Shown: piece by piece, positions 4,275 through 41,843 of the stretch
Numbering within the stretch: position 1 is the first letter of the stretch
Layout: the number at the start of each line of letters is the position of its first letter
NCBI GenBank assembly: GCA_026393865.1
Contig: JAPKZI010000234.1
Coordinates: forward strand, 288-64,287
Length of the DNA stretch: 64,000 bases
Reading direction: 5' to 3'
DNA from: Candidatus Aminicenantes bacterium
GTDB lineage: Bacteria > Acidobacteriota > Aminicenantia > Aminicenantales > UBA4085
Notes under the pieces: model-generated
The model's database searches: none
Told to the model about the DNA's origin: nothing
What the model saw: the letters and a program-made list of their open reading frames with translations, nothing else
Program-made: the position numbers and the translations under genes

Positions 4275-6018
4275 CGGTCTTGTCCTCCTTTTGGGTGGCT
4301 GTCTTTGGGATCTGAAACCTCGTCAGTTGTTCTTTCATCAGTTCGCCCAGCGTCATCCGGTCGTCCTGGCTGTCGACGTATTTCTGATAATCCTGCTTCT
4401 GGATGTCCATCTGGGCCAGGCGGAAGCTGAGCGAGATCTTCTTGTCCTTCGCGTTCAATTTTATGATCTTGGCCGTCTTCTCTTCGCCGACCTTGAACAC
4501 TTCGGCCGGATTGTCGATCTTCTTCTCGTCGAGCTCGGAGAGGAAGACGACGCCCTCGATGCCCGGCAGGATCTCGACGAAGAGGCCGAACTCGGCGATG
4601 CGGACGATCTTGACGTTGACCAGGGCTCCCGTCCGGTGCCGGGCGTAGAAATCCTCCCAGATGTCACCCTCGAGCTGCTTGATGCCCAGGGAGACCTTTT
4701 GCTTTTCTACATCGATGTTGAGGATGACGGCCTCCTGTTCCTGGCCGACCTTCAGCTTGGCCGAGGGGTGCTTGATCTTCTCCCAGGAGATGTCGGAGAT
4801 GTGAATGAGGCCTTCGATCCCGGGCTCGACCTCCAGGAACGCCCCGAAATCGGTGACGCTCGTGATCTTGCCCTTGATCCGGGTGCCCAGCGCGTATTTC
4901 TGCTTGAGGACTTCGAGCGGATGGGGGGAAGACTGCTTGAGGCCCAGGGAGATCCGCTTGGAGGTCGGATTGACTTCGAGGACGGTCACCACGACCTCGT
5001 CCCCGAGAGAGAGGAGCTTCTTGGGATGGATCATCTTCCGCGACCAGCTCAGGTCGGAAACGTGGACAAGGCCTTCCACGCCCTTCTCGAGTTCGACGAA
5101 GGCGCCGAAATCGGTCAAGCTCGTGACCTTGCCGGTCAGCCTCTGGCCGGCCGCGTATTTCTCGGCGATATTGGCCCAGGGGTCGGGCGTCAGCTGTTTG
5201 GCCCCCAGGGAGATCTTCTCGGCCTTCTCATTGAAGTCCAGGACGACGACCTCGACCTCCTGCCCCGGTTTGAAGAGCTCCGAAGGATGGATGGTCTTGC
5301 CCCAGGACATGTCGGACACGTGGAGGAGGCCCTCCACGCCGCCAAGGTCGACGAAGGCCCCGAAATTGGTCAGGGATTTCACCTGCCCTTTGATCCGCTG
5401 GCCTTTGGCCAGATGGCTGAAAACCTTCCGGCGTTTCTTTTCCCGCTCGTCCAGGAGGAAGAGCTTCCGGGAGACGACCGCGTTCTCGGTCTTCCGGTCG
5501 AACTTGATGACCTTGAACTTGAAGGTCTGGCCGATGAGCTTGTCCGGGTCCTTGACGATCCTGAGGTCGGCGTGGGAGTCCGGCATGAAGGCGTCGATGC
5601 CGACGTTCACCGTGAAGCCGTTCCTGTTCTTCTCGCTGACCCGGCCGCTGATGAAGGTGCCGTGGGCGAAGGCCTTCTCCAGGACGTCCAAAGCCCGTTG
5701 GACGTCGGCGCTCTTCTTGGACAGGATGAAGTACCCTTCCTTCGGGTCGGTCTTCTCCAGGACGGCCTCGACCTCGTCCCCCATCTTCGGCTTCACCGGC
5801 GGGACGCCCTCGGCGAACTCCTCGATGGGGATGACGCCTTCGGACTTGAGGCCGATGTCCACGAGCACGTGAGTGGGCGTGACCTTGATCACCCGGCCCT
5901 TGACGATATTGCCGGCGCTGACCTCCTTTGTGCTGTACTGATATTTGTCCAGCAGATTTTCATAATCCTCGGAAGTCATCTTTTCGTCTTTTTCGGGTCG
6001 TTTGGTTATCTCTGACAT
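4267..6018 (-). CDS. rpsA: 30S ribosomal protein S1
   Basis: 583 aa with six repeated S1 OB-fold units (G.V..V..FGAFV.L..G.EGL.H.S. pattern repeated along the protein). Confidence 0.9.
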   Translation of the reverse strand: MSEITKRPEKDEKMTSEDYENLLDKYQYSTKEVSAGNIVKGRVIKVTPTHVLVDIGLKSEGVIPIEEFAEGVPPVKPKMGDEVEAVLEKTDPKEGYFILSKKSADVQRALDVLEKAFAHGTFISGRVSEKNRNGFTVNVGIDAFMPDSHADLRIVKDPDKLIGQTFKFKVIKFDRKTENAVVSRKLFLLDEREKKRRKVFSHLAKGQRIKGQVKSLTNFGAFVDLGGVEGLLHVSDMSWGKTIHPSELFKPGQEVEVVVLDFNEKAEKISLGAKQLTPDPWANIAEKYAAGQRLTGKVTSLTDFGAFVELEKGVEGLVHVSDLSWSRKMIHPKKLLSLGDEVVVTVLEVNPTSKRISLGLKQSSPHPLEVLKQKYALGTRIKGKITSVTDFGAFLEVEPGIEGLIHISDISWEKIKHPSAKLKVGQEQEAVILNIDVEKQKVSLGIKQLEGDIWEDFYARHRTGALVNVKIVRIAEFGLFVEILPGIEGVVFLSELDEKKIDNPAEVFKVGEEKTAKIIKLNAKDKKISLSFRLAQMDIQKQDYQKYVDSQDDRMTLGELMKEQLTRFQIPKTATQKEDKTDD

Positions 6019-6884
6019 TGGACGCGACTCTCCTCTCGTGAATGGGGTTCGAAGATCTGCTGAATTTTCTCGACAGCGGCTTCGATGGCTTCGGGCGGCG
6101 TGGACGCCCCTCCCGATATCCCTATGGTTCTTGCTCCGCGGAGCATTTCCGTCGTGATCTGGCCGGCGCTCTCGATGAAGTAGGTCCGGGGCAGGATGCG
6201 CTTGGAGATCTGGTAGAGCTTGCGCGTGTTGGAGCTGTTCTTCCCGCCGACGATGAAGAGGGCTTCGACCCGGGTGGCCAGCTCGGACGCGGCCCGCTGG
6301 CGCGTCTGGGTCGACTTGCAGATGGTGTTGAAGACCTGGAGATCCTCGGTCTTCTCGATGAGCGAGGCGACGACCTTTTTGAACAGATACAGATCCTGGG
6401 TGGATTGGGCCAGTACGGCCCGCCTCTTCTTGAAGGAGAGGGCGGCCGTTTGGGTTTCGTTCTCGATGATGAGACCCCGTCCTCGGCTGTGGCCGATGAG
6501 GCCCTTGCTCTCGGGGTGATCCTTATTGCCGACGATGATGATCTCTTTGTTCTCCCGGGCCAGCCGGCCCACCAGCTCCTGGATCTTCTGGACGATCGGG
6601 CAGGTCGCGTCGACGACTTCGAGTTTTTTTCTTTTCAGGGCCTTGTAGATATCGGGCGAGACGCCGTGGCTGCGGATGATGACCGTGCCGTGCTCGATGT
6701 CCTTGACGTCTTCGATGGAGCCGACGCCCTTGGCTTTGAGGTCGGCGATGACCTGCGGATTGTGGATGAGGTCGCCGAGGGTCGAGACCTTTCCCTCCCG
6801 GCGGCGCCGGGTTTCCTGGGCGGTCTTCAAGGCTCGCTTGACGCCGTAGCACAATCCCGTGTTCTTGGCGATGATGATTTCCAT
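6006..6884 (-). CDS. ispH: 4-hydroxy-3-methylbut-2-enyl diphosphate reductase (IspH/LytB)
   Basis: The three [4Fe-4S] Cys contexts of LytB are present (GLCYGV, DATCPIV, NTICKST). The track ORF extends to 6905, but MEIIIAKNTGLCYGV (ATG at 6884) aligns with known IspH N-termini and the predicted promoter would start transcription downstream of 6905. Confidence 0.88.
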   Translation of the reverse strand: MEIIIAKNTGLCYGVKRALKTAQETRRRREGKVSTLGDLIHNPQVIADLKAKGVGSIEDVKDIEHGTVIIRSHGVSPDIYKALKRKKLEVVDATCPIVQKIQELVGRLARENKEIIIVGNKDHPESKGLIGHSRGRGLIIENETQTAALSFKKRRAVLAQSTQDLYLFKKVVASLIEKTEDLQVFNTICKSTQTRQRAASELATRVEALFIVGGKNSSNTRKLYQISKRILPRTYFIESAGQITTEMLRGARTIGISGGASTPPEAIEAAVEKIQQIFEPHSREESRVQCQR

Positions 6885-29248: not shown

Positions 29249-29264
29249 TGGCACAAAATGTGCT
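29249..29264 (+). promoter_or_regulatory. Putative sigma54 (-24/-12) promoter TGGCAC-AAAAT-GTGCT
   Basis: tggcacaaaatgtgct has GG (29250-29251) and GC (29262-29263) separated by exactly 10 nt. It lies 24 nt upstream of the M1 peptidase start. Confidence 0.5.
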
Positions 29265-29287: not shown

Positions 29288-31948
29288 GTGATGAAACTGA
29301 CGTCATGGTTCGTCATCTGTTATAATAATAAGGTGAAAGGAACCGTCCGTAACCTTTTATGGGCCTGCGCGGCGGCCGTCCTCCTGGGCCTTCCCCTTTC
29401 CGGACAGACCGTCGACGACCTCCTGACCGGCCTCCAAGGATCGTTCGCTTCCAAGGACGTGGCCGCGTATGCCGGCGTGTTCAGTCCTGAAATCCGGGAG
29501 CGGGAGAGCGCCGCCATGTCCACCTATCTGAACAAGTGGCGGATGAACCAGGTCCTGTTCCATCGGGCCACCCGCGACCCCGACAAGGAAGGTGAACCCG
29601 GGATCTTTCTTCAGGTCTTTTTCCAGAACGACGATTCGGCCGTGCTCGAGATCTGGCGCGTCACGTTCGCCAAGGCCGGGGATGGATGGCGGATCCGGAC
29701 CAAGGAAGTGATGGGGAATATCACCGCCCTGTACAAGATCCGCATCCCCTCCGGGCGCGTCGAACGGGCCGCCCGGGTCGAGATCCGGCATCAGGACATC
29801 CTCATCACCTTCCAAGACGCTTGGATCTTCCATGACAATATCGAGGACCAGGAGACGGCCCTTGTCGTCATCGGCCGGGGACAGTTCCATTTCTCGCCCT
29901 CGAGCGATACCGAGAAGCACCAGCTTGAGCTCCGCTACAGGAAGAATTTCATCCAGGACTCTCTCGAATACGGCTATTTCCGTTTTTCCGACTCCTTCTT
30001 CCGGAGCCATATCACGATCGACAAAGCCCCGCCGGAGAAGACCCCGACGCTCTCCCAAGCCGACTCCAACCGGGCCTATTCGTTGTTCACCCGCTATTAT
30101 CCCAACTCGTTCACGATCGAGAATTCGTTGACGGGCGGCCGCCTTTCGTTCATCCCGCGGGGCGACCAGGCCGTCTTCGAGTTGAAGGGCAAGAAGACGG
30201 GCGATGTGGCCTATATCTATTCGCCGTTCTCCGACGACGAGATCCACTTCGTCGGCCGCAATCCCGATCAGGTCATCAACCTCTATACGCCCGAGATCAA
30301 GGGCGAGGAAGGCCTGAAATCGTTTTTCGTCTCCTTCGGGGAGAAATTCGACGTCCGGCGCTGCGACGTGGAGGTGGATTTCCAGCCGGATAAGCGCTAT
30401 CTCTCGGCCCGGGCCCGGATCGAGGTCAGCGCTCAGATCGACGCCGTCGAAAACCTGAAATTCAACTTCCACCCTGACTTCGAGATCCTCCGGATCTACG
30501 ACCAGGACGGCCGCGAGCTCTTCTATACTTTGGACAAGCAGCGCAAGCTCCTCTATATCTATTTCATCAAGCCCCTCGAAAAGAACGCCACGGGCGCGAT
30601 CGAGATCTACTATCGCGGAGCGATCGAGCCGCCCGGACTGATCCAGGACGTCATCTCCGGCGGCCAGTACAACGAGACGATCTCCTTCACCGAACCCCGC
30701 TACGACACGTTCTTATACAGCCAGTCGGCCTATTGGTATCCCCAGCCGGCGGAGGAAGACTACTTCCTGGCCAGCCTCCATTTCAGCATTCCCCCGGGAT
30801 ACACCTGCATCGCCAACGGGGAACTGGTCGAACAGGGGCGGCTCGAGGCGGTCCGACGCGTCATGACCCTCGAAAAAGTCGGCAACGCCCTCTATCACTT
30901 CGAGACCAAATTCCCCGTCAAATACCTGTCCTTCCTCGTCGGACGGCTCGACCGGATATCCAACGGCAACGGAGGCGGTCCGATCGGCATCCAGGGCTAT
31001 GTGGCTTCGGAGATCCGCGCCCAACGAAAAGGCCTGGTCGAGGATGCTCGAGCGATTGTCCAGAACTACTCGGCCTGGTTCGGCCCGTTCCCCTATGAGA
31101 AGCTGGATATCGTCCAGCGTCTCTGGCCGACGACCGGAGGCCATAGCCCGGCCTCCTTCATCGTCTTGAACGAACTGCCCCGGATCCCCAACGCTCCTCC
31201 TCTGGTCACGGCGAACAGCCCGGTGGACATGCCCCGCTTTCGTGAATATTATCTCGCCCACGAGATCGCCCATCAATGGTGGGGTCAGGCCGTGACCTGG
31301 GAACGTTATCGGGACCAATGGCTCAGCGAGGGACTGTCCCAGTTCGCGGCCGCGCTTCATGTGAGGGCGAAGTTCGGCGAAGAGGCTTACGCGGGCATCC
31401 TCAAGAAATTCTCGCAGTGGACCGAGCGCCTGGCCGATTGGGGGCCGATCACTCTGGGGTCGCGTCTGAGCTACCTCAATTTCGACGCGTACCAGGCCAT
31501 CGTCTATGACAAGGCGACGGTCGCCCTCAACATGCTCCGCGACCTCATCGGCGAGGAGGCGTTTTTCAGGGGCCTGCGCGGCTTCTTCGAGAAATATAAA
31601 TATCGCCCGGCCCGGACGAACAATTTCATCCAGGCCATGGAGCAGACTTCGGGCCGGGACCTCCAAGCTTTTTTCAAAGGCTGGTTCGATACGCACGTCC
31701 TTCCCGAAATTGATACCGCGCACGAGATCTTGAAGCGGGGCGACGCTTACATCGTGAAAATCCGGGTCAACCAGACCCGGGGCAATTTTGTCTTTCCGCT
31801 CTGGGTCCAGTGGGAGGAGAACAAGAAGACGGTCCGGAAGATGATGGAGATCGGCGCGGCGACCCAGGAATTCGAATTTCCGGCGGCATTCCGCCCGGCC
31901 AAGATCAAGATCAATCCCGACAAGCTTGTCCCGGGCAACTTCAAATAA
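29288..31948 (+). CDS. Exported M1-family zinc aminopeptidase with long N-terminal extension
   Basis: 886 aa with HEIAHQWWG (HExxH) followed by WLSEGLSQF (third ligand Glu). It has a signal-like segment LLWACAAAVLLGLPLSG. The track start is GTG at 29288, with ATG at 29291; the true start is uncertain. Confidence 0.8.
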   Translation: MMKLTSWFVICYNNKVKGTVRNLLWACAAAVLLGLPLSGQTVDDLLTGLQGSFASKDVAAYAGVFSPEIRERESAAMSTYLNKWRMNQVLFHRATRDPDKEGEPGIFLQVFFQNDDSAVLEIWRVTFAKAGDGWRIRTKEVMGNITALYKIRIPSGRVERAARVEIRHQDILITFQDAWIFHDNIEDQETALVVIGRGQFHFSPSSDTEKHQLELRYRKNFIQDSLEYGYFRFSDSFFRSHITIDKAPPEKTPTLSQADSNRAYSLFTRYYPNSFTIENSLTGGRLSFIPRGDQAVFELKGKKTGDVAYIYSPFSDDEIHFVGRNPDQVINLYTPEIKGEEGLKSFFVSFGEKFDVRRCDVEVDFQPDKRYLSARARIEVSAQIDAVENLKFNFHPDFEILRIYDQDGRELFYTLDKQRKLLYIYFIKPLEKNATGAIEIYYRGAIEPPGLIQDVISGGQYNETISFTEPRYDTFLYSQSAYWYPQPAEEDYFLASLHFSIPPGYTCIANGELVEQGRLEAVRRVMTLEKVGNALYHFETKFPVKYLSFLVGRLDRISNGNGGGPIGIQGYVASEIRAQRKGLVEDARAIVQNYSAWFGPFPYEKLDIVQRLWPTTGGHSPASFIVLNELPRIPNAPPLVTANSPVDMPRFREYYLAHEIAHQWWGQAVTWERYRDQWLSEGLSQFAAALHVRAKFGEEAYAGILKKFSQWTERLADWGPITLGSRLSYLNFDAYQAIVYDKATVALNMLRDLIGEEAFFRGLRGFFEKYKYRPARTNNFIQAMEQTSGRDLQAFFKGWFDTHVLPEIDTAHEILKRGDAYIVKIRVNQTRGNFVFPLWVQWEENKKTVRKMMEIGAATQEFEFPAAFRPAKIKINPDKLVPGNFK

Positions 31949-32132: not shown

Positions 32133-32162
32133 TTGACAGGGATTCGGCCCGAGGACTATAGT
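32133..32162 (+). promoter_or_regulatory. Putative sigma70 promoter (TTGACA-18-TATAGT) for the sigma54 response-regulator gene
   Basis: ttgaca lies at 32133-32138 and tatagt at 32157-32162. The ATG is at 32182. Confidence 0.4.
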
Positions 32163-32181: not shown

Positions 32182-33573
32182 ATGCCGGCAGCGACAATAA
32201 AAGAAGATCGGGCGGATGGCCATGAGATCGTTTCGCCGGCCTCTCTGCGCGTTCTCGTGGTCGATGATGAGCTCAACATCCGCAGGACCCTCACGATCTG
32301 CCTCGAATCGGACGGCCATCGGGTCACGTCCGTCGCCAACGTCCAAGACGCCCTGGCGGAGGCCTCGCGACGGAGCTTCGATTTGGCCTTCGTGGATATC
32401 CGGCTGGGGACGGAGGACGGCCTCGATCTGATCCCGGCCCTGCGGGCGACGGCGCCCTGGCTGAAGATCATCATCATCACCGCGTACGCCTCCATCGATT
32501 CGGCCATCGAAGCCATGCGGCGCGGCGCGACCGATTACATCCCGAAGCCGTTCACACCCGCTCAGATCCAACTGGCCGTCCGAAAGGCCTTCGAGATGCG
32601 GACGCTCGAACAGCGGGTGGCCAGCCTTCAGGAGGATCTCGGCCGGGCCCATCCCGAGATCGATTTTTCGAGCGCTTGTCCGGCCATGCAGCGGGCGGTG
32701 AATCTCGCCCGCCAGGCGGCCGCGTCCGACGCGACGATCCTTCTGCGCGGGGAGAGCGGGACCGGAAAAACCTTCCTGGCCAGGGCGATCCATGCATGGA
32801 GCCGCCGGGCGGAGAAGACCCTTGGGGTCGTTTCCTGTCCCTCCTTTTCCCGGGAGCTCTTGGAAAGCGAGCTTTTCGGGCATGTGAAAGGGGCCTTTAC
32901 CGGCGCCGTCCGCGACAATCCCGGCCGCCTCGCCGCCTGCGAGGGCGGGACGCTGTTCCTGGACGAGATCAGCGACCTTCCTCTAGCCTTGCAACCGAAA
33001 CTGCTTCGCTTCGTCCAGGACAAGGAATACGAGCGCGTCGGCGAGGCCGTGCCGCGCAAGGCCGAGGTGAGACTGATCGCCGCCACGAATATCGTCCTGG
33101 AGAAAGCGGTCAAGGAAGGCCGGTTCCGGGAGGACTTGTATTATCGGATCAACGTGATCCAGATCGAGATCCCGCCCCTGCGCGAGCGTCCAGAGGATGT
33201 GGTCACCCTGGCCGGGCGTTTGCTGGCCTTTCACGGCCGGAACAATCACCGGCTGGACCTGGCCTTCACGAACGAGGCGCTCGAAGCGCTCCGCCGGCAT
33301 GCTTGGCCGGGAAACGTGCGCGAACTGAGCAACGTAGTGGAACGGGCGGCCATCCTGTGCCGGACAAACCGGATCGGAATCGAAAGCCTCCCCGCCGTTC
33401 TTGTGCCCGGCGACGCCGCGCCGAAGATCGGCGATCCGGTGACGCTCGAGCGGATCGAGGAAGAGCACGTCCGTCGCGTCCTGGCCGGCGCGAGATCGCT
33501 TCAAGAAGCGGCGGACATCCTCGGCATCGACCAAGCCACCCTCTGGCGGCGCCGAAAAAAATACGGCCTCTGA
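32182..33573 (+). CDS. Sigma54-dependent response regulator (REC + AAA+ EBP + Fis-type HTH)
   Basis: 463 aa with a REC domain (VLVVDDE...DLAFVDIRL), Walker A GESGTGKT, the GAFTGA sigma54-contact motif, and a C-terminal HTH (AADILGIDQATLWRRRKKYG). Confidence 0.9.
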   Translation: MPAATIKEDRADGHEIVSPASLRVLVVDDELNIRRTLTICLESDGHRVTSVANVQDALAEASRRSFDLAFVDIRLGTEDGLDLIPALRATAPWLKIIIITAYASIDSAIEAMRRGATDYIPKPFTPAQIQLAVRKAFEMRTLEQRVASLQEDLGRAHPEIDFSSACPAMQRAVNLARQAAASDATILLRGESGTGKTFLARAIHAWSRRAEKTLGVVSCPSFSRELLESELFGHVKGAFTGAVRDNPGRLAACEGGTLFLDEISDLPLALQPKLLRFVQDKEYERVGEAVPRKAEVRLIAATNIVLEKAVKEGRFREDLYYRINVIQIEIPPLRERPEDVVTLAGRLLAFHGRNNHRLDLAFTNEALEALRRHAWPGNVRELSNVVERAAILCRTNRIGIESLPAVLVPGDAAPKIGDPVTLERIEEEHVRRVLAGARSLQEAADILGIDQATLWRRRKKYGL

Positions 33574-33701: not shown

Positions 33702-33717
33702 TGGCATAATTCGTGCA
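33702..33717 (+). promoter_or_regulatory. Putative sigma54 (-24/-12) promoter TGGCAT-AATTC-GTGCA upstream of the kinase-kdp operon
   Basis: tggcataattcgtgca has GG (33703-33704) and GC (33715-33716) separated by 10 nt, 25 nt upstream of the ATG at 33742. A perfect 12-bp palindrome ATCTTGCAAGAT (33591-33602) and a related TTCTTGCGATTTTCAAG lie about 80-110 bp upstream, where EBP sites are expected. Confidence 0.55.
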
Positions 33718-33741: not shown

Positions 33742-35583
33742 ATGTTCGGACTCCGACAAAAATTGGCTTTGGGATTCGGTGTTCTTTTTCTCATCATGGT
33801 CGCCATCGGCGTGCAAAGCATCCTCAATCTTACGAAATTGGGGGAATCGATCGACGTCATCCTTCGGGAGAACTATCGCAGCGTCATCGCCTGCCAGCAG
33901 ATGAAAGAAGCCTTGGAACGGATCGACAGCGGACTCCTCTTCGTCCTCCTAGGAGACGGCCGGAGCGGTGAAGAGATGATCCTTAAAAATCAAGGGATCT
34001 TCGAAAAGGCTCTCCAGGTTGAGCTGAACACCATCACCTTGCCCGGCGAAGGCGAGAAGGCCGCGAATCTCAGGGACCTTTACGAGCGGTACAAAAATTC
34101 GCTGGCCGCCGTCAGGGATCCGGCGGCCTCGGCGCTGCAGCGCCACGACGCTTATTTTCTGATCCTCCTTCCCCTCTTCGGGCAGATCAAAGCGGTATCG
34201 GACGAGATCCTCCAGATGAATCAGCAAAACATGAGCGATGCCAACAACGAGGCTCGCGACAGCGCGGCCAGGGCTCGACAGCAGATGTACGGCCTCCTGC
34301 TGATCGGGACGATCGCCGCGGCAGCGTTAATGGCCTTCGCCGGACGATGGATCCTGCGTCCCATCCGGCGCCTGATCCGTTCCACGGACGAAATCCGGCG
34401 GGGCAATCTCGATCTGGTTGTTCCCGCCGGCGCCCGGGACGAGATCGGCCATCTGTCCGAGTCCTTCAACGCTATGACGGCGAGCCTGCGGGAATTCCGC
34501 CGGACCGATCAGGCCAAGCTCTTGCGGGTCCAGCAGGCTACTCAGCAGGCGTTCGACAGCCTTCCCGACGTTGTCGCCGTGATTGACCCGGAGGGAAAAG
34601 TGGAAGTGGCGACGGCATCGGCTAAAAACATCTTCGGCTTATGGCCCGAGGCGACGATCATGGACCTGCCGTTCCCGTGGATCACGGACCTCTTCCGCGG
34701 CGCTTTCACGGAAGGACGCCGCATAACGCCCAAGGACCAGCCCCTGATCCAGCAATTCGTGCAGGGCGATGAGCGCTATTACCGGCCGGAAGCGGCGCCT
34801 ATCCTGAACAAGGAACGGGGAGTGACGGGCGTGATCCTGGTCTTCCAGGACGTCACCCAGCTCCGCCAGCAGGATGAGCTCAAACGGGACGTCATCCGGA
34901 CGGTCTCGCATCAACTTAAAACCCCTCTGACATCCATCCGCATGGCCATCCACCTCCTGCTCGAAGAGCGGGTCGGCGGCTTGACCGAAAAACAGGCCGA
35001 GCTCCTTGTCGCGGCCCGGGAGGACAGCGATCGCCTCTCCGGCATCCTCAACAATCTTCTCGATCTCAGCCGTATGGAATCCGGGAAAGGCCGGCTCGAA
35101 TTCCGGGCCGCTTCACCGCAGTCGATCGCCATGGACGCGCTGGAATCCGTCCGGCGAACCGCCCAGGACCAAGGCTTGAATCTCGGCGCCGAACTGAGGG
35201 GCGATCTGCCGGATGTCTGGGTCGATCCGAGCCGGATCAGCCATGTCTTCGGCAACCTGCTCTCCAACGCGCTCAAGCACACCTCTCCCGGCGGTCGGAT
35301 CACCCTCTCCGCTCGGGCGGAAGAAGAGTTAGTCCGTTTTTCGATCTCCGACACCGGAGCTGGTATTCCGGCCGAATGCCTGACGAAAGTGTTCGAGCCG
35401 TTCTTCCGCGTCCCCGGCCGCGGCAACGAGCAGGGCGCGGGACTCGGCCTGACCATCGCCAAGGAGATCGTCGAGGCTCATGGCGGAACGATCGGCGTGG
35501 AAAGCCGCGAAGGCCAGGGCGCCGTTTTCACCTTCACTCTGCGGCGGGCCGACCGCATCGGGAACGCGGAGCGTCCCTCATGA
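33742..35583 (+). CDS. Sensor histidine kinase (periplasmic four-helix-bundle-like + HAMP + PAS + HisKA/HATPase)
   Basis: 613 aa with two TM segments flanking a helical periplasmic region and a HAMP domain (WILRPIRRLIRST...LSESFNAMTASL). It has H-box VSHQLKTPLTSI and ATPase boxes LSNALKHT, DTGAGIP and GAGLGLTIAKEIV. Confidence 0.85.
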   Translation: MFGLRQKLALGFGVLFLIMVAIGVQSILNLTKLGESIDVILRENYRSVIACQQMKEALERIDSGLLFVLLGDGRSGEEMILKNQGIFEKALQVELNTITLPGEGEKAANLRDLYERYKNSLAAVRDPAASALQRHDAYFLILLPLFGQIKAVSDEILQMNQQNMSDANNEARDSAARARQQMYGLLLIGTIAAAALMAFAGRWILRPIRRLIRSTDEIRRGNLDLVVPAGARDEIGHLSESFNAMTASLREFRRTDQAKLLRVQQATQQAFDSLPDVVAVIDPEGKVEVATASAKNIFGLWPEATIMDLPFPWITDLFRGAFTEGRRITPKDQPLIQQFVQGDERYYRPEAAPILNKERGVTGVILVFQDVTQLRQQDELKRDVIRTVSHQLKTPLTSIRMAIHLLLEERVGGLTEKQAELLVAAREDSDRLSGILNNLLDLSRMESGKGRLEFRAASPQSIAMDALESVRRTAQDQGLNLGAELRGDLPDVWVDPSRISHVFGNLLSNALKHTSPGGRITLSARAEEELVRFSISDTGAGIPAECLTKVFEPFFRVPGRGNEQGAGLGLTIAKEIVEAHGGTIGVESREGQGAVFTFTLRRADRIGNAERPS

Positions 35584-35663
35584 CCGACCTCATCTATATC
35601 GCCCTGGCGGTTCTTTTTTTCGGCCTCTGCGGCCTGTACGCGCGGGCCTGCGAAAGGCTGTGA
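35580..35663 (+). CDS. 27-aa hydrophobic peptide (not in ORF track), possible KdpF-like accessory
   Basis: The sequence is MTDLIYIALAVLFFGLCGLYARACERL*. Its ATG overlaps the kinase stop (ATGA at 35580-35583) and it lies immediately upstream of kdpF. Confidence 0.35.
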   Translation: MTDLIYIALAVLFFGLCGLYARACERL

Positions 35664-35666
35664 CCC

Positions 35667-35750
35667 ATGGGAGATCTGCTCGGGATCATCGTTGCGCTTC
35701 TCTTGATCGTTTATCTGTTCGCCTCGATCCTGCGGCCGGAGAAATTCTAG
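35667..35750 (+). CDS. kdpF: K+-transporting ATPase subunit F
   Basis: The 27-aa sequence MGDLLGIIVALLLIVYLFASILRPEKF* is a single TM helix ending in the KdpF-typical LLRPE(K/R)F tail. It lies 7 nt upstream of kdpA. Confidence 0.7.
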   Translation: MGDLLGIIVALLLIVYLFASILRPEKF

Positions 35751-35757
35751 GAGGCGT

Positions 35758-37509
35758 TTGAACATGGACCTTTACGGGTGGATTCAGCTGGCCCTTTTCC
35801 TCGGCCTCCTTGGTCTTCTGGCCAAACCCGTCGGCCTTTATCTTGTCCGGGTTCTGGACGCCCAGGGAAAAACATTTTTAGACCGCGTTCTTAAGCCCGT
35901 CGAACGGAGGCTATACCGTTTTATGGGGGTTGACCCGCGGAAAGAGCAGGATTGGATACACTATACGGTCTCCTTATTGGCCTTCAGCCTGGCCGGGCTT
36001 TTGTTCACGTTTGCCGTTCTCCGGCTCCAGCACTTCCTTCCGTTGAATCCCCAAAAACTGGGTCCGGTCGGTCCGCACCTCGCCTTTAACACCGCGGTCA
36101 GTTTCACGACCAACACGAACTGGCAAAACTATGCCGGCGAGACCACCTTATCCTATTTTTCCCAGATGGTCGGTCTCGTCTTCCACAATTTCGTCTCTGC
36201 GGCCGCCGGGATCGCCGCCGCGGCGGTCCTCGTCCGCGGGATCGCCCGTCATTCGACGAGGGCCCTCGGCCATTTCTGGGTCGATCTCGTCCGGGTGAAT
36301 CTCTACCTGTTGCTGCCGGCCAGCCTGATCTTCTCGATCTTTCTAGGATCGCAGGGCGTCGTCCAGAATTTCAATCCCGCCGTCATAGCCGCGGCCGTTG
36401 AAACCGCGTCTCCTCGAGATTCAAGAACGGAGGCCGGCGCCCAGACTATCGCCCAAGGCCCTGCGGCCTCGCAAGTGGCGATCAAAATGCTGGGGACGAA
36501 CGGAGGAGGCTTTTTCAACGCCAACGCCGCCCATCCGTACGAGAACCCGACGCCCCTGTCCAACTTCATCCAGATGCTTTCCATCTTGTTGATTTCGAGC
36601 GGCTTGACTTATTATCTGGGACGGACCGTCCGGAACCAAGGCCACGGCTGGGCCGTCTGGTCGGCCATGGCCCTGCTCTTCCTTGCTTCGGTCCTGATCT
36701 GCTGGCGGGCGGAAAGCGGGGGCAATCCCCGCTGGACGGCGCTCGGCGTGGACCCGGCCGCCGGGAACATGGAGGGTAAAGAGGTCCGTTTCGGGGCTTT
36801 CGATTCCGCCCTCTTCGCCTCCGTCACCACGGCCGCCTCCTGCGGCGCGGTGAATTCCATGCATGATTCGTTCACGCCGCTCGGAGGGCTCATTCCGCTT
36901 TTCAACATCCAATTGGGGGAGGTCGTGTTCGGCGGCGTGGGCGCCGGTCTTTACGGGATGTTGGTCTTCGTCGTGCTGGCCGTATTCCTGACAGGGCTGA
37001 TGGTCGGCCGATCGCCCGAATATCTAGGCAAGAAAATCGAAGCGTATGACGTCAAGATCAGCGTCCTCGCCGTCGTCATCCTCTTTTTCAGCATTCTCGG
37101 CTTTTCGGCCTGGGCGGCCGTCACCCAATGGGGAACGTCCGCCCTGCACAACGCCGGGCCGCACGGCCTGAGCGAGATCCTCTACGCGTATTCGTCCGGA
37201 ACTGGCAACAACGGGAGCGCTTTCGCCGGGCTGAACGGAGACAGCCCGTCCTACAACGTCACGTTGGCTTTGGCCATGCTTGCCGGTCGCTTCCTGATGC
37301 TGGTCCCCGTGATGGCCTTGGCCGGGAGCTTGGCGACCAAGAAAAGAATACCCCCCTCCGGGGCGAGCTTTCCCGTCGCCGGATGGATGTTCACCATTAT
37401 CCTTGTCGCCACGGTTCTGATCGTCGGAGCGCTGACATTCCTTCCGGCCCTCGGCCTCGGCCCGATCGTCGAGCACTTCGTCATGACGGGGTCGTCGCTT
37501 CTCTATTAG
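35758..37509 (+). CDS. kdpA: K+-transporting ATPase subunit A
   Basis: 583 aa, polytopic. KdpA selectivity-filter-like segments are present ([39 protein letters not shown]). The track start is TTG at 35758, with an in-frame ATG at 35764. Confidence 0.9.
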
Positions 37510-37519
37510 CGGGGAAAAC

Positions 37520-39541
37520 ATGGCCGCCATCCACCATTCCCTCTTTGACCGGCGCATTGTCGGCCGGGCGATGCTTGATTCCTTCAAGAAACTGAACCCG
37601 CTGTCGCTCCGGAAAAATCCGGTCATGTTCGTAACCGCGGTCGGCGCCGTCATGACGACGCTCGGCCTCGTCGTCCGCTCCGGGAAGGAATCCGCCGGCT
37701 TCGTCTTTCAGATCAGCCTCTGGCTGTGGTTCACGGTGCTCTTCGCGAATTTCGCCGAAGCCATGGCCGAAGGGCGCGGCAAGGCCCAGGCGCGGGAGCT
37801 GCGCAAGACCCGCACTTCGACCATCGCCAACCGCCTTCGGGAGGACGGAACGATCGAGGCGGTCCCGGCGGAACGCCTGCGGAAGGCCGACCTCGTTCTC
37901 GTCGTCGCCGGCGAGATCATCCCGGCGGACGGTGAGATTATCGAGGGCGCTGCTTCTGTGGATGAATCCGCCATCACGGGCGAGTCCGCCCCCGTCATCC
38001 GGGAAGCGGGCGGAGACCGGAGCGCGGTCACCGGCGGGACGCGGGTCCTTTCCGACCGGATTAAAGTCCGCGTCACGGCCGACCCGGGAGAGAGCTTTTT
38101 GGACCGGATGATCAATCTCGTCGAAGGCGCCGAGCGCCGCAAAACGCCGAACGAGATCGCCCTGACGATCCTCCTCTCGGCGCTGACGATCATTTTCCTG
38201 GCAGTCATACTCACCTTGGGACCGCTCGGCCGTTATTCCGGCGTGTCGTTCACGATCACGAGTCTCGTCGCGCTCCTCGTCTGCCTCATCCCGACCACGA
38301 TCGGCGGCCTCCTCAATGCCATCGGCATCGCCGGCATCGATCGCATGGTCCAGAAAAACGTCCTAGCCATGAGCGGCCGGGCGGTCGAAGCGGCAGGGGA
38401 TGTGGATGTCCTTCTTCTCGATAAGACCGGGACCATCACCCTGGGCAACCGCCAGGCCGCCGCCTTTCTCCCGGCGGCCGGCGTGACCATCGACGAATTG
38501 GCCAACGCCGCCCAGCTCGCCTCGCTGGCCGATGAAACGCCCGAGGGACGGAGCATCGTTGTCCTGGCGAAGACATACGGCTTCCGCGGCCGGGCCCTGT
38601 CCGAGCTGCCCGAAGCGAAATTCATCCCTTTTTCGGCCCAAACGCGGATGAGCGGCGTGGATATCGACGGCCGGCGGATCAGGAAGGGCGCTCCCGATGC
38701 CGTCCGGGCGTTCATCGGGCAGAACGTTCCCGCCGAAGTCCTGGATTCGATCAGCGTCATCTCGTTTTCCGGCGGGACCCCGCTTCTCGTGGCCGAGGGA
38801 AGCCGGGTCCTTGGCGCCGTTCATTTGAAGGACATCGTCAAGGGAGGGCTCAGAGACCGCTTCGAGAGGTTCCGGGCCATGGGTATCAAGACGGTGATGA
38901 TCACCGGCGACAACCCGCTCACTGCGGCGGCCATCGCCCGGGAAGCGGGCATGGATGATTTCGTCGCCGAGGCCAAGCCGGAGGACAAATTGAGATTGAT
39001 CCGGAGCGAACAGGCGGCCGGGCACCTCGTGGCGATGACCGGGGACGGGACCAATGATGCCCCCGCTTTGGCCCAGGCCGACGTGGGCGTGGCTATGAAC
39101 ACAGGGACGCAGGCCGCCAAGGAGGCCGGGAACATGGTCGACCTCGATTCGAACCCGACCAAGCTGATCGAGGTCGTCGAGATCGGCAAGCAGATGCTCA
39201 TAACCCGGGGGGCCTTGACGACATTCAGCATCGCCAATGATGTGGCCAAATACTTCGCCATCATCCCGGCCATGCTGGTCGGCGCCTTCCCGGTCATCGC
39301 CCCTCTGAACATCATGGGCCTCCGGTCGCCGGCGAGCGCTATCCTGAGCGCCGTCATTTTCAACGCCCTTATCATTATCGCCCTGATCCCACTGGCCCTG
39401 CGCGGGGTGCGCTTCCGTCCCCTGGGCGCGACGGCGCTGCTCAAACGGAATCTCCTGATTTACGGCCTCGGCGGTCTCCTTGCTCCATTTGCCGGGATCA
39501 AACTGGTGGACATGGTAGTGAATGCGCTCCATCTTATATAA
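37520..39541 (+). CDS. kdpB: K+-transporting P-type ATPase subunit B
   Basis: 673 aa with the phosphorylation motif DKTGTIT, the hinge [17 protein letters not shown], and TGES in the actuator domain. Confidence 0.95.
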
Positions 39542-39562: not shown

Positions 39563-40156
39563 ATGAAGGACTGGATATCGGAGATACGGACCTCGGCGGC
39601 GGCGGTCATTTCCTTGGCCGTCCTGTTGGGCGGCTTCTATCCTCTTGCCGTCTGGGTCTTGAACCAGGGATTGTTCCCGGCCAAGGCCAATGGTTCGCTG
39701 GTCCTTCGGCAGGGACAGGTCGTGGGATCGAGCCTCATCGGCCGGGATTTCTCGGGTCCAGCCTATTTTCATCCGCGGCCTTCGGCCGCCGGCCGGGGTT
39801 ATGACGCCCTTCGTTCCGGTGGCAGCAATCTCGGTCCCACGTCGCGGGAATTGATCGAGGCGGTCCGCCGGCGCGTCGCGGCATACCGGGCCGAAAACAA
39901 TCTTGCCGCGGACGTCCTCGTGCCCGCCGACGCGGTCACCGCTTCGGCAAGCGGACTCGACCCCCACATTTCCTTGGCGAATGCGTTCTTGCAGGCTCCT
40001 CGAGTGGTTGCAGCGCGGGGCCTGTCCGAAGAAGCTGTGCGCAAGCGGATCGAAGCCTGCGCCGAAGGCCGGGACCTGGGCTTCCTGGGACAGCCTCGGG
40101 TGAATGTCCTGAAATTAAACCTAGCCCTGGACGGAGTTCATGATGGCGGACGATAG
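39563..40156 (+). CDS. kdpC: K+-transporting ATPase subunit C
   Basis: 197 aa with an N-terminal TM anchor. The KdpC pattern is present (GSSLIGRDF..PAYFHPRPSA...SGGSNLGPTS...VPADAVTASASGLDPHIS). Confidence 0.9.
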   Translation: MKDWISEIRTSAAAVISLAVLLGGFYPLAVWVLNQGLFPAKANGSLVLRQGQVVGSSLIGRDFSGPAYFHPRPSAAGRGYDALRSGGSNLGPTSRELIEAVRRRVAAYRAENNLAADVLVPADAVTASASGLDPHISLANAFLQAPRVVAARGLSEEAVRKRIEACAEGRDLGFLGQPRVNVLKLNLALDGVHDGGR

Positions 40157-41843
40157 GGCCGGCGCCTTTCTCCAGATGATTCGCCGCTCGCAGCGCGGGC
40201 GGCTGAAAGTCTATCTCGGGTACTGCGCCGGCGTGGGCAAGACCTATCAAATGCTTCAAGAAGGCCATCGGCTGAAGAACGAAGGCATCGATGTCGTCAT
40301 CGGGCTGCTCGAGACGCACGGCCGGTCCGCTATCGCCGGTTTGGCTGAAGGCCTGGAGGTCGTTCCTCGCCGCCGGCAGGAATATCACGGCATAGCCGTG
40401 GACGAAATGGACATAGAGGCTGTGTTGGCCCGCAAACCGCAGGTGGCTCTTATCGACGAGCTCGCCCATCCCAACGTTCCGGGCAGCCGGAACGCGAAAC
40501 GATACGAGGATGTTCAAGATATTCTGGCAACGGGAATCCATGTCATCACCACGCTGAACGTCCAGCATCTGGAGAGCCTCTACAACGTCGTGGAACAGGC
40601 TGTGGGCGTCAAAGTCCGCGAGCGCCTGCCGGATTCGGTCCTGGCCGAGGCGGACCAGATCGTCGATGTCGATCTGGCGACCGAGGACCTCCGGAAACGG
40701 TTGGAGGAGGGCAAGATCTACTCGGCCGACCGCATCGGGACCGCCCTGGCTCATTTCTTCGTCCCCTCCAATCTGGAAAAGCTCAGGGAGCTCACCCTCC
40801 GCGAACTCGCCTCGCAGATCGATCTCCGGCGGCGCGAGACGCAGGACGATGGGCAGAGCACGGCGGACCAGATCATGGTCTGCTTGAGCGCGCACGGTCC
40901 CAACAGCGAGAAACTGCTGCGCTACGGATCGCGCTTGGCCGGGAAGCTCAACCGGAATTGGTATGCCGTTTATGTCCAGACACCGTCGGAAGAAGCCACG
41001 GTCATCGACGCTCAAACCCAACGCTTCCTCTCGGACGCGCTAACCCTGGCCAAGCAGCTGGGCGCCGTCGTGTTCACGTACAAGGGCGAGGATATCGCCG
41101 ATACCGTCCTTCGCTTCGCCCAGGAATATCGCGTGGGTCATATCGTCGCCGGGAGGTCCCGGCCGAAGCCGTTCTGGAAAAGGTTCGGCCGGAACAAGGC
41201 CGTCGTCGAGACGCTCCTCAAGAACGCCGAAGGAATGACGGTGATCGTTCTCGATACGTGCGGGGATATGCCTCCGCCCTCCACCCGGACGGCCATGGAG
41301 ATGCCGGATAACGAGGGTCCGGCGGAGCCGGATAGAACCCGCGGGAGCCCGTTCGCAGAGGTTCTTCGCCTGAGCGCCTGCCTATCCGCGCGCCGCATCG
41401 TGATCTGGGATGGACCGATCCGCAAAGAGGACGTCCTGAGAACACTGGCGGCGGCCGCCGTGGACGAGAACCGGATCGAGGACGCGGAGGGCTTGTTCGG
41501 CGATATCATGAAAAGAGAGGCCCAGGGGTCGACCTTTTTCAACGAGGGAGCGGCGTTCCCGCACGTCCGCGTCGCGGGCTTGTCCGCGCCGGTCGTCGCC
41601 GTGGGATTGACGAAACGGGGCGTATCCGACGTCTCGACGGAAAAGCCGATCGAGATCGTCTTTCTCATTCTCTCGCCGGCCGATACTCCAGATATGCAGG
41701 TCAAACTTTTAGGCTGGGCCAGCCGGGCCGCCCAAAACCGACAACTCTTCCAGACGCTTAAAGCCGGCCGATCTCCCCAGGATGTTTTAACGGCCATCCT
41801 CCGCTGGGAAAATCCGACGGTCTTTGTGCGTCCGAAGGATTGA
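40140..41843 (+). CDS. Kinase-less KdpD N-terminal sensor + Usp domain fused to a PTS EIIA(Ntr)-type domain
   Basis: 567 aa with the KdpD N-domain (GRLKVYLGYCAGVGKTYQML...VITTLNVQHLESL) and a Usp-like domain (IMVCLSAHGPNSEKLLRYGSRLA). The C-terminal PtsN-like EIIA domain has GAAFPHVRV (phospho-His context) and IEIVFLILSP. There is no TM, HisKA or HATPase region. Confidence 0.85.
   Translation: MMADDRAGAFLQMIRRSQRGRLKVYLGYCAGVGKTYQMLQEGHRLKNEGIDVVIGLLETHGRSAIAGLAEGLEVVPRRRQEYHGIAVDEMDIEAVLARKPQVALIDELAHPNVPGSRNAKRYEDVQDILATGIHVITTLNVQHLESLYNVVEQAVGVKVRERLPDSVLAEADQIVDVDLATEDLRKRLEEGKIYSADRIGTALAHFFVPSNLEKLRELTLRELASQIDLRRRETQDDGQSTADQIMVCLSAHGPNSEKLLRYGSRLAGKLNRNWYAVYVQTPSEEATVIDAQTQRFLSDALTLAKQLGAVVFTYKGEDIADTVLRFAQEYRVGHIVAGRSRPKPFWKRFGRNKAVVETLLKNAEGMTVIVLDTCGDMPPPSTRTAMEMPDNEGPAEPDRTRGSPFAEVLRLSACLSARRIVIWDGPIRKEDVLRTLAAAAVDENRIEDAEGLFGDIMKREAQGSTFFNEGAAFPHVRVAGLSAPVVAVGLTKRGVSDVSTEKPIEIVFLILSPADTPDMQVKLLGWASRAAQNRQLFQTLKAGRSPQDVLTAILRWENPTVFVRPKD

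Follow-up and report, generated by a model that had tools for sequence, protein, structure and literature searches.

The final gene of a kdp operon in Candidatus Aminicenantes bacterium (Acidobacteriota) encodes a 567-amino-acid (aa) protein in which the N-terminal half of the sensor KdpD is fused to an EIIA domain of the phosphoenolpyruvate (PEP)-dependent phosphotransferase system (PTS). It lies in a 64,000-nucleotide (nt) stretch of contig JAPKZI010000234.1 (NCBI GenBank assembly GCA_026393865.1, positions 288 to 64,287 of the forward strand), referred to here as the window, from a genome of 3.2 Mb that is 86% complete. The open reading frame (ORF) list and its translation give 567 uninterrupted codons (Table 1). 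The ATG of the fusion gene at 40140 is located 17 nt within kdpC, which ends at 40156, and is preceded by GGAG 5 nt upstream; the overlap suggests translational coupling. A first-pass annotation, made from the sequence alone, had read the protein as the KdpD N-terminal (KdpD-N) and Usp domains continuing into an EIIA domain, in the last gene of the operon and without the transmembrane, HisKA and HATPase half of KdpD, and this layout is borne out in each of its parts.

Three domains can be assigned along the protein. Pfam PF02702 (KdpD) matches residues 18-227 with an E value of 4.3e-89 and covers profile positions 1-210 of 210; the motifs GVGKTYQML and NVQHLESL are present, and the KdpD-N structure of P. 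syringae (PDB 2r8r) is matched both in sequence (E 1e-60) and by Foldseek. The Usp domain (residues 244-348 in Pfam) scores 19.9 bits, slightly below the cut-off of 24, and its assignment is confirmed by a Foldseek fold match to the S. aureus KdpD-USP structure 7ji4 (template modelling [TM] score 0.82). At the C-terminus, PF00359 (PTS_EIIA_2) matches residues 429-554 with an E value of 4.8e-18 and a score of 66 bits (cut-off 27); the motifs GAAFPH and IEIVFLILSP are found. The linker of about 30 residues between Usp and EIIA varies in length and sequence over the family, its alignment columns being gapped and unconserved. A Pfam search of the protein gives no HisKA, HATPase, GAF or DUF4118 match, and no membrane helix is predicted since the highest 19-residue Kyte-Doolittle mean is only 1.37. 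Among NCBIfam models, the first approximately 370 positions of the full-length KdpD and NF038185 models are matched, together with weak EIIA models. In the predicted structure, the local confidence score (pLDDT) is 85-94 at residues 410-560 and about 30 at the linker (residues 377-406). The full-length AlphaFold model has a mean pLDDT of 65.9 and a predicted TM score (pTM) of 0.34, with KdpD-N poorly modelled from a 34-sequence alignment, and it was used for per-domain fold comparison only.

Table 1. Coordinates of the KdpD-EIIA fusion gene, its domains and residues, and the genes and elements of its operon (window positions; residue numbers are those of the fusion protein unless stated otherwise).
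Feature	Position	Strand	Basis or remark
Fusion gene (567-aa KdpD-N / Usp / EIIA protein, soluble, no kinase transmitter)	40140..41843	+	ORF; Pfam and NCBIfam
KdpD N-terminal domain, predicted Walker A/B atypical serine-kinase module (residues 18-227)	40191..40820	+	PF02702; PDB 2r8r; E. coli alignment
Walker A-like G27-x5-G33-K34-T35	40218..40244	+	Equivalent to E. coli G36/K37/T38; Y36 follows, equivalent to W39
Walker B D106-E107	40455..40460	+	Corresponds to E. coli D109/E110, the pair that catalyses Ser phosphorylation
Usp domain (residues about 244-372)	40869..41255	+	Pfam 19.9 bits; Foldseek 7ji4
Flexible linker, Pro/Glu-rich (residues 377-406)	41268..41357	+	pLDDT about 30; gapped alignment columns
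PTS EIIA domain, Mtl/Fru/Ntr-type (residues about 410-557)	41367..41810	+	PF00359; pLDDT; Foldseek 1a6j
Codon of His475 in G-A-A-F-P-H, predicted phospho-acceptor	41562..41564	+	Aligns with His73 of E. coli PtsN
kdpB, proposed substrate	37520..39541	+	64% identical to E. coli KdpB
NtrC-type response regulator / sigma54 enhancer-binding protein	32182..33573	+	Domains
Sigma54-type -24/-12 element TGGCATAATTCGTGCA	33702..33717	+	25 nt 5' of kinase start
4HB_MCP-HAMP-PAS-HisKA-HATPase histidine kinase, first gene of the operon	33742..35583	+	Domains
27-aa hydrophobic mini-ORF MTDLIYIALAVLFFGLCGLYARACERL	35580..35663	+	Coupled to kinase stop codon (ATGA)
kdpF (27 aa, C-terminus LRPEKF)	35667..35750	+	
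kdpA	35758..37509	+	PF03814, E 5e-225
kdpC	39563..40156	+	Last 17 nt shared with fusion gene

The N-terminal domain appears to carry the equipment of an atypical serine kinase. The KdpD N-domain phosphorylates KdpB at Ser162, for which Walker A, Walker B, W39 and R190 are required (Silberberg et al., 2024, PMC11018627). In pairwise alignment, the fusion shares 42% identity with KdpD of E. coli K-12 (b0695) over residues 10-391 and 13-388, respectively, and R187 corresponds to R190. Judged by this alignment, all the E. coli residues required for KdpB serine phosphorylation are kept, W39 as Tyr36; in P. syringae KdpD, too, W39 has a Tyr counterpart. The Walker residues, D106/E107, R187, Pro474 and His475 are invariant in all 34 family members of at least 56% identity, as expected for the conserved His of the first-pass annotation, and the catalytic residues are invariant or nearly so among family representatives down to 35% identity. 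The KdpB encoded in the same operon keeps the TGES target site, with E155-S156 equivalent to E161/S162 of E. coli KdpB. The KdpD-N domain of the fusion is the only one in the genome, and a tblastn search of that genome, at 86% completeness, found no piece of KdpD with the membrane and GAF domains.

The closest characterised relative is the short KdpD of Deinococcus geothermalis (DgKdpD, UniProt Q1J2K3), which phosphorylates KdpB Ser162 and is stimulated by cyclic di-adenosine monophosphate (c-di-AMP) without having the K+-sensing membrane and GAF domains (PMC11018627). Like DgKdpD and the NF038185 family ("KdpD-like non-kinase potassium sensor"), the fusion is a soluble KdpD-N plus Usp protein without membrane, GAF, dimerisation and histidine phosphotransfer (DHp) or catalytic (CA) domains; it has the same Walker A/B residues, and short KdpDs too are encoded with kdpFABC in organisms without KdpE. 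Unlike them, it adds the linker and a C-terminal EIIA domain of about 150 residues, its c-di-AMP motif is partial, and a sigma54 activator and a kinase other than KdpD are predicted to control its operon. Against NF038185, the fusion scores 350 bits and does not reach the cut-off of 550, since it is too divergent and has the extra EIIA, although both domains are aligned over their full extent (model positions 8-368 of 373). The KdpD sensor histidine kinase model NF007793 gives 356 bits against a cut-off of 1123, and only model positions 13-373 of 895 are matched. The c-di-AMP motif of KdpD USP domains, (A/G/C)xSxSxxN(Y/F), has been defined previously (PMC8214093); in the fusion C248, S250 and N255 match it, and positions 252 and 256 do not.

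The EIIA domain contains the signature R459-E460...S464-T465...P474-H475, and R-E...G-S-T...P-H is conserved down to 35% identity. His475 is found in 14 of the 15 representatives at 50% identity, which extend to 35% identity; the remaining one has Cys. This representative, P0166, is a distant, N-terminally truncated protein of 521 aa that reads FPC instead of FPH. The best fold match of the domain is E. coli EIIA-Ntr (1a6j; TM score 0.86, root-mean-square deviation 2.1 Å, Foldseek). Among the EIIA_2 paralogues of the genome, it is nearest to PtsN (59.7 bits, 28% identity), followed by two others at 37 and 28 bits. The PtsN equivalog cut-offs are nevertheless missed by a wide interval (TIGR01419, 32.6 against 138.7 bits; NF008145, 27 against 221 bits), and the fructose IIA model TIGR00848 gives 53.4 bits, above the PtsN model scores yet under its own cut-off. 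The fused EIIA is thus, by sequence, a fourth EIIA_2 paralogue, nearest to the PtsN of the genome and clearly distinct from it. The first-pass description of the domain as PtsN-like is right as to fold and nearest paralogue, but an orthologue of PtsN it is not: the TIGR01419 cut-off is missed and a separate ptsN is present in the genome.

The PTS genes for which the first-pass annotation proposed a search of the genome exist as two sets. Contig C42 carries lptB-rpoN-hpf-ptsN-hprK-rapZ-EIIA(Man)-HPr-EI, placing ptsN in the rpoN cluster together with HprK, HPr and EI. Contig C71 (18786-22640, minus strand) encodes a multiphosphoryl protein of 840 aa (HPr-EI-EIIA) and, adjacent to it, the only EIIB and EIIC (344 aa) of the genome. 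From its gene content, the organism has a transport PTS (C71) and an rpoN-linked regulatory PTS (C42), and cross-talk between these two branches could feed the fused EIIA. Potential phosphodonors for His475 exist because EI and HPr are encoded in the genome. The genome has a further unusual EIIA fusion, a 273-aa protein on contig C150 (20732-21553, minus strand), whose PTS_EIIA_2 domain, with the phospho-His motif GVAVPH, is joined to a coiled segment and to a zinc ribbon of the C4 type (Zn_ribbon_9).

These observations bear on the alternative that the EIIA is a non-phosphorylated relic, serving as a dimerisation, scaffold or small-ligand domain in what would be an ordinary, c-di-AMP-controlled short KdpD. 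The scores below the PtsN and fructose IIA equivalog cut-offs would fit such a relic, as would the replacement of the second active-site His of EIIA-Ntr and EIIA-Mtl by Gln in the clade of the fusion, the Cys in place of His475 in one representative, the single diadenylate cyclase of the genome, and the resemblance of the Usp fold to c-di-AMP-bound KdpD USP (7ji4). If there were no phosphotransfer, however, it would be hard to account for the retention of R-E...G-S-T...P-H to 35% identity; the genome encodes EI and HPr, and the c-di-AMP motif is incomplete. We consider a relic improbable.

The fusion is no one-off; it belongs to a large and apparently horizontally spread family, which uncultured anaerobes commonly possess. 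Both Pfam domains occur in each of the 120 best full-length homologues, and these are 555-577 aa long. They come mostly from Aminicenantes metagenome bins and go under one of two names, "sensor histidine kinase KdpD" and "PTS sugar transporter subunit IIA". When the EIIA part alone served as the query, 578 clusters at 90% identity were returned, with KdpD-N in nearly all of the top 120, Krumholzibacteria included, while a profile-free scan of 1.8 billion representatives returned about a dozen full-length clusters at 50% identity. Twenty loci from species genomes were compared, from Aminicenantes, Thermodesulfobacteriota/Syntrophobacterales, Hydrogenedentota and bins labelled Clostridia. The three-domain protein is present in all 20, and in a single open frame in 19, that of L015 being frameshifted. 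The phylogenetic profile proposed in the first-pass annotation takes in Aminicenantes, Thermodesulfobacteriota, Hydrogenedentota and Krumholzibacteria. Of 301 evenly sampled Acidobacteriota species genomes, nine have the fusion; the others have a KdpD of approximately 900 aa, a short KdpD of approximately 380 aa, or nothing. Proteins of approximately 740-780 aa in the representative library (P0132, P0139, P0141, P0142, P0145, P0146 and others), in which KdpD-N/Usp is matched twice (e.g., residues 20-360 and 400-750), appear from their domain matches to be tandem duplicated short KdpDs.

That the gene is an annotation or assembly artefact, or a subunit of a sugar-PTS transporter, would agree with the NCBI name of its homologues, "PTS sugar transporter subunit IIA", and with some EIIA-only hits of 313-323 aa. 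The three-domain architecture is not an assembly artefact, because both Pfam domains occur in the 120 best homologues and 19 of the 20 loci, from independent assemblies, have it in a single open frame, as does the window. The short hits were also considered as a separate architecture, which was rejected: the one examined proved to be a fragment produced by a frameshift, on a contig rich in indels. As for a sugar transporter, the operon contains only kdp and regulator genes, with no EIIB or EIIC, and the only EIIB and EIIC of the genome are on C71 with an HPr-EI-EIIA protein of their own. The open frames, the family count and the frameshift origin of the short hit examined refute both versions, which we regard as having next to no likelihood.

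Upstream of kdpFABC, the operon begins with a histidine kinase that is not KdpD, preceded by the gene for an NtrC-type activator whose 3' end is also visible 5' of the kinase in related loci. The 168-bp spacer between regulator and kinase contains the -24/-12 element TGGCATAATTCGTGCA, in agreement with the sigma54 control proposed in the first-pass annotation, and in 10 of 16 related loci TGGCAY-N5-TTGCW recurs, 25-45 nt ahead of the start of the kinase gene. Matches to the sigma54 pattern are not enriched across the window (22 against 40 expected), and for this reason the site at 33702 draws its support from position and cross-locus conservation only. Between kinase and fusion there are no gaps that point to a promoter or terminator inside the operon; shuffled sequence contains terminator-like sites at least as often. 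The mini-ORF between the kinase stop and kdpF has an equivalent, always at this place, in all 15 related loci examined (L011-L030), with the consensus M-x-D-L-[IV]-[YF]-I...FFGLC...[CF]-E-R-L. Its constant presence and place make it look like a real conserved small membrane protein of the module. A convergent gene of the metallo-beta-lactamase fold follows 33 nt past the fusion. A near-consensus sigma70-type promoter (window 32133-32162; TTGACA, 18-nt spacer, TATAGT; 11/12) lies 20 nt 5' of the regulator gene, which may thus be transcribed apart from the sigma54-driven kinase-kdp operon. Further upstream, a sigma54-like -24/-12 element with one mismatch, TGGCACAAAATGTGC, is found at 29249-29263, 25 nt 5' of an M1-peptidase ORF (29288-31948).

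This gene order is widely shared. The module, almost always the same, comprises the sigma54 activator, a 4HB-HAMP-PAS kinase, the 27-aa peptide, kdpFABC and the fusion, and in all 20 loci, drawn from several phyla, the fusion remains tied to kdp genes and to the kinase. Wherever a locus extends far enough upstream, the order is a colinear kinase-kdpA-kdpB-kdpC-fusion; the exceptions are L014, L015 and L026, where the kdp genes are arranged differently and the fusion still adjoins the kinase. Maximum-likelihood analysis of the fusion proteins splits Aminicenantes between two well-supported clades that stand apart, and both clades also contain Thermodesulfobacteriota. This mixing of phyla is consistent with horizontal transfer of the module, bearing in mind that bins may be mislabelled.

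Regulation of Kdp by the nitrogen PTS (PTS-Ntr) is established in proteobacteria (PMC13104625, PMC9239096). Free PtsN (EIIA-Ntr) binds the HisKA domain of KdpD in E. coli and its GAF domain in S. fredii (PMC9239096), and rhizobia have a ptsN2 gene inside the kdp cluster (PMC13104625). Like the PtsN proteins that act on KdpD in E. coli, P. putida, R. leguminosarum and S. fredii, the fused EIIA has an EIIA_2 fold, a phospho-His motif and a tie to Kdp. PtsN is, in contrast, a free protein of approximately 160 aa that acts on HisKA or GAF of full-length KdpD and alters transcription, whereas the fused EIIA is joined to the KdpD N-terminal half and encoded in the kdp operon instead of the rpoN-hpf-ptsN cluster. 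Covalent joining of two partners known to interact had been taken in the first-pass annotation as a Rosetta-stone observation. Given the known PtsN-Kdp coupling in proteobacteria this is a reasonable lead, but the fusion lacks the HisKA and GAF parts that PtsN binds. Compared with full-length KdpD of E. coli, the fusion has identical atypical serine-kinase residues (apart from the Tyr for W39) and its gene likewise follows directly after kdpC, overlapping it. Unlike that tandem serine/histidine kinase, it has no four-helix membrane domain, GAF, DHp or CA; KdpE is also missing, its place being taken by an NtrC-type activator and a different kinase. No description of a KdpD-N/Usp/EIIA fusion was found in the full-text literature, subscription-only papers being outside the scope of the search, and the EIIA version is missing from both a survey of KdpD variants (PMC11018627) and a 2026 review of PTS-Ntr (PMC13104625). 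All three domains and both pathways are already known; their combination is widespread, unstudied and mislabelled.

The proteobacterial precedent raises the alternative that the fusion is mainly a transcriptional co-sensor, its EIIA binding either the DHp domain of the kinase encoded in the operon or, in loci that have a separate membrane-GAF protein, the GAF of that protein. A non-covalent "KdpD" would be rebuilt in this way, with KdpD-N/Usp reporting ATP, c-di-AMP or the state of the pump, and phosphorylation of KdpB would be secondary or absent. Free PtsN activates KdpD through just these domains in E. coli and S. fredii (PMC9239096), and the long linker, disordered in the model, would allow the EIIA to reach such a partner. 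A full-length orthologue of the kinase is found in all eight other Acidobacteriota genomes with the fusion (adjacent in seven, on a separate contig in G270) and in all loci reaching far enough upstream, including L014, L015 and L026, where fusion and kinase stay together in spite of the displaced kdp genes. In L014 (5485-6738), L012 (5526-6770), L015 (about 5924-6727) and L032 (5997-7256), a gene for a separate 417-aa protein, a partial Usp followed by DUF4118 and GAF, lies directly 5' of the fusion. Since this protein corresponds to the membrane/GAF middle of KdpD without the kinase, KdpD appears from its gene structure to be split into three or more polypeptides in some Thermodesulfobacteriota-type loci.

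Kinase co-occurrence was rejected as a sign of EIIA-kinase contact. Full-length relatives of the kinase (31-38% identity) also adjoin plain short KdpD-N/Usp genes without EIIA in other Acidobacteriota (G137, G221, G050 and G045), which indicates that the pairing predates the addition of EIIA and is independent of it. The genome of the window lacks a membrane-GAF protein, and strict conservation of the serine-kinase residues and of the KdpB target argues that kinase function is retained. A predominantly transcriptional co-sensor is therefore rather unlikely in our view. The first-pass annotation had proposed a different kinase or KdpB as the target; KdpB fits the finding that KdpD-N is a Ser162 kinase (PMC11018627), and the companion kinase has turned out not to be specific to EIIA.

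We lean towards a reading of the fusion as a short KdpD, a serine kinase of KdpB, whose activity or choice of partner is set by PTS phosphorylation of its EIIA domain. The short KdpD of D. geothermalis is the ground for this, having the same architecture minus the tethered EIIA. KdpD-N would phosphorylate KdpB at Ser156 and so switch off KdpFABC pumps that have already been made, like KdpD of E. coli and the short KdpD of D. geothermalis. With the K+-sensing membrane and GAF domains missing, control would come instead from the state of His475 on the tethered EIIA, phosphorylated by HPr~P, and the ATP-driven K+ pump would thus be tied to PEP and the carbon-nitrogen state of the cell. Binding of c-di-AMP at Usp is a possible second input. 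Transcription of the operon would be governed separately by the NtrC-type activator, the 4HB-HAMP-PAS kinase and the sigma54 promoter, in place of KdpE and the KdpD transmitter. Because the fusion is without the HisKA and GAF sites bound by free PtsN, its EIIA may act also on the KdpD N-terminal half, which is the reading we favour, or alternatively serve as a docking arm for a separate transmitter or GAF protein. Under the favoured reading, too, it perhaps docks in addition on the transmitter of the 4HB-HAMP-PAS kinase, as free PtsN does on KdpD. In a more specific and more tentative form, to which we give a less than even chance, the PTS would directly gate a P-type ATPase: phosphorylated His475 would turn the KdpD-N kinase on or off toward KdpB, or make the fusion change partners, from KdpB to the kinase transmitter (or to GAF of the membrane-GAF protein) and back, or do both, so that one switch would serve post-translational and sigma54-dependent transcriptional control of K+ uptake.

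The domains, residues, KdpB target motif, phosphodonor genes and conserved operon linkage can be read from the sequences themselves, and several points weigh against the regulated KdpB kinase built upon them. The EIIA scores under the curated PtsN and fructose IIA cut-offs bear on its phosphodonor, and the second active-site His is Gln in the clade. One distant representative has Cys for His475. In the N-terminal half, W39 is replaced by Tyr36, a conservative change, and the c-di-AMP motif of Usp is incomplete. The AlphaFold model (pTM 0.34) has no reliable inter-domain contacts that would dock the EIIA on KdpD-N/Usp. Co-occurrence of HPr with the fusion (seven of eight fusion genomes, 28 of 32 non-fusion Acidobacteriota) is uninformative because HPr is near-universal in the phylum. 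Serine-kinase activity, phosphorylation of His475, their coupling and its sign are what we infer from these sequences.

To our knowledge, both K+ homeostasis through KdpFABC and its connection with the nitrogen PTS have been studied almost only in Proteobacteria. There the link consists of a transient contact between PtsN and KdpD, and its physiological logic is still debated. An EIIA hard-wired to a KdpB serine-kinase module is independent genomic evidence of an ancient or recurrent link between PTS and Kdp, and it points to a new target of this link, namely post-translational inhibition of the pump instead of transcription. As a simple soluble two-input protein, the fusion is open to in vitro reconstitution of control by EIIA phosphorylation. 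The names "sensor histidine kinase KdpD" and "PTS sugar transporter subunit IIA", which databases now give to hundreds of sequences, are misleading and are corrected by the domain assignment. If the proposed gating through His475 is true, the module of enhancer-binding protein, kinase, 27-aa peptide, kdpFABC and fusion would be a complete, horizontally mobile alternative to KdpDE, and PTS-Kdp coupling, so far known from Proteobacteria alone, would extend to Acidobacteriota, Thermodesulfobacteriota and other phyla.

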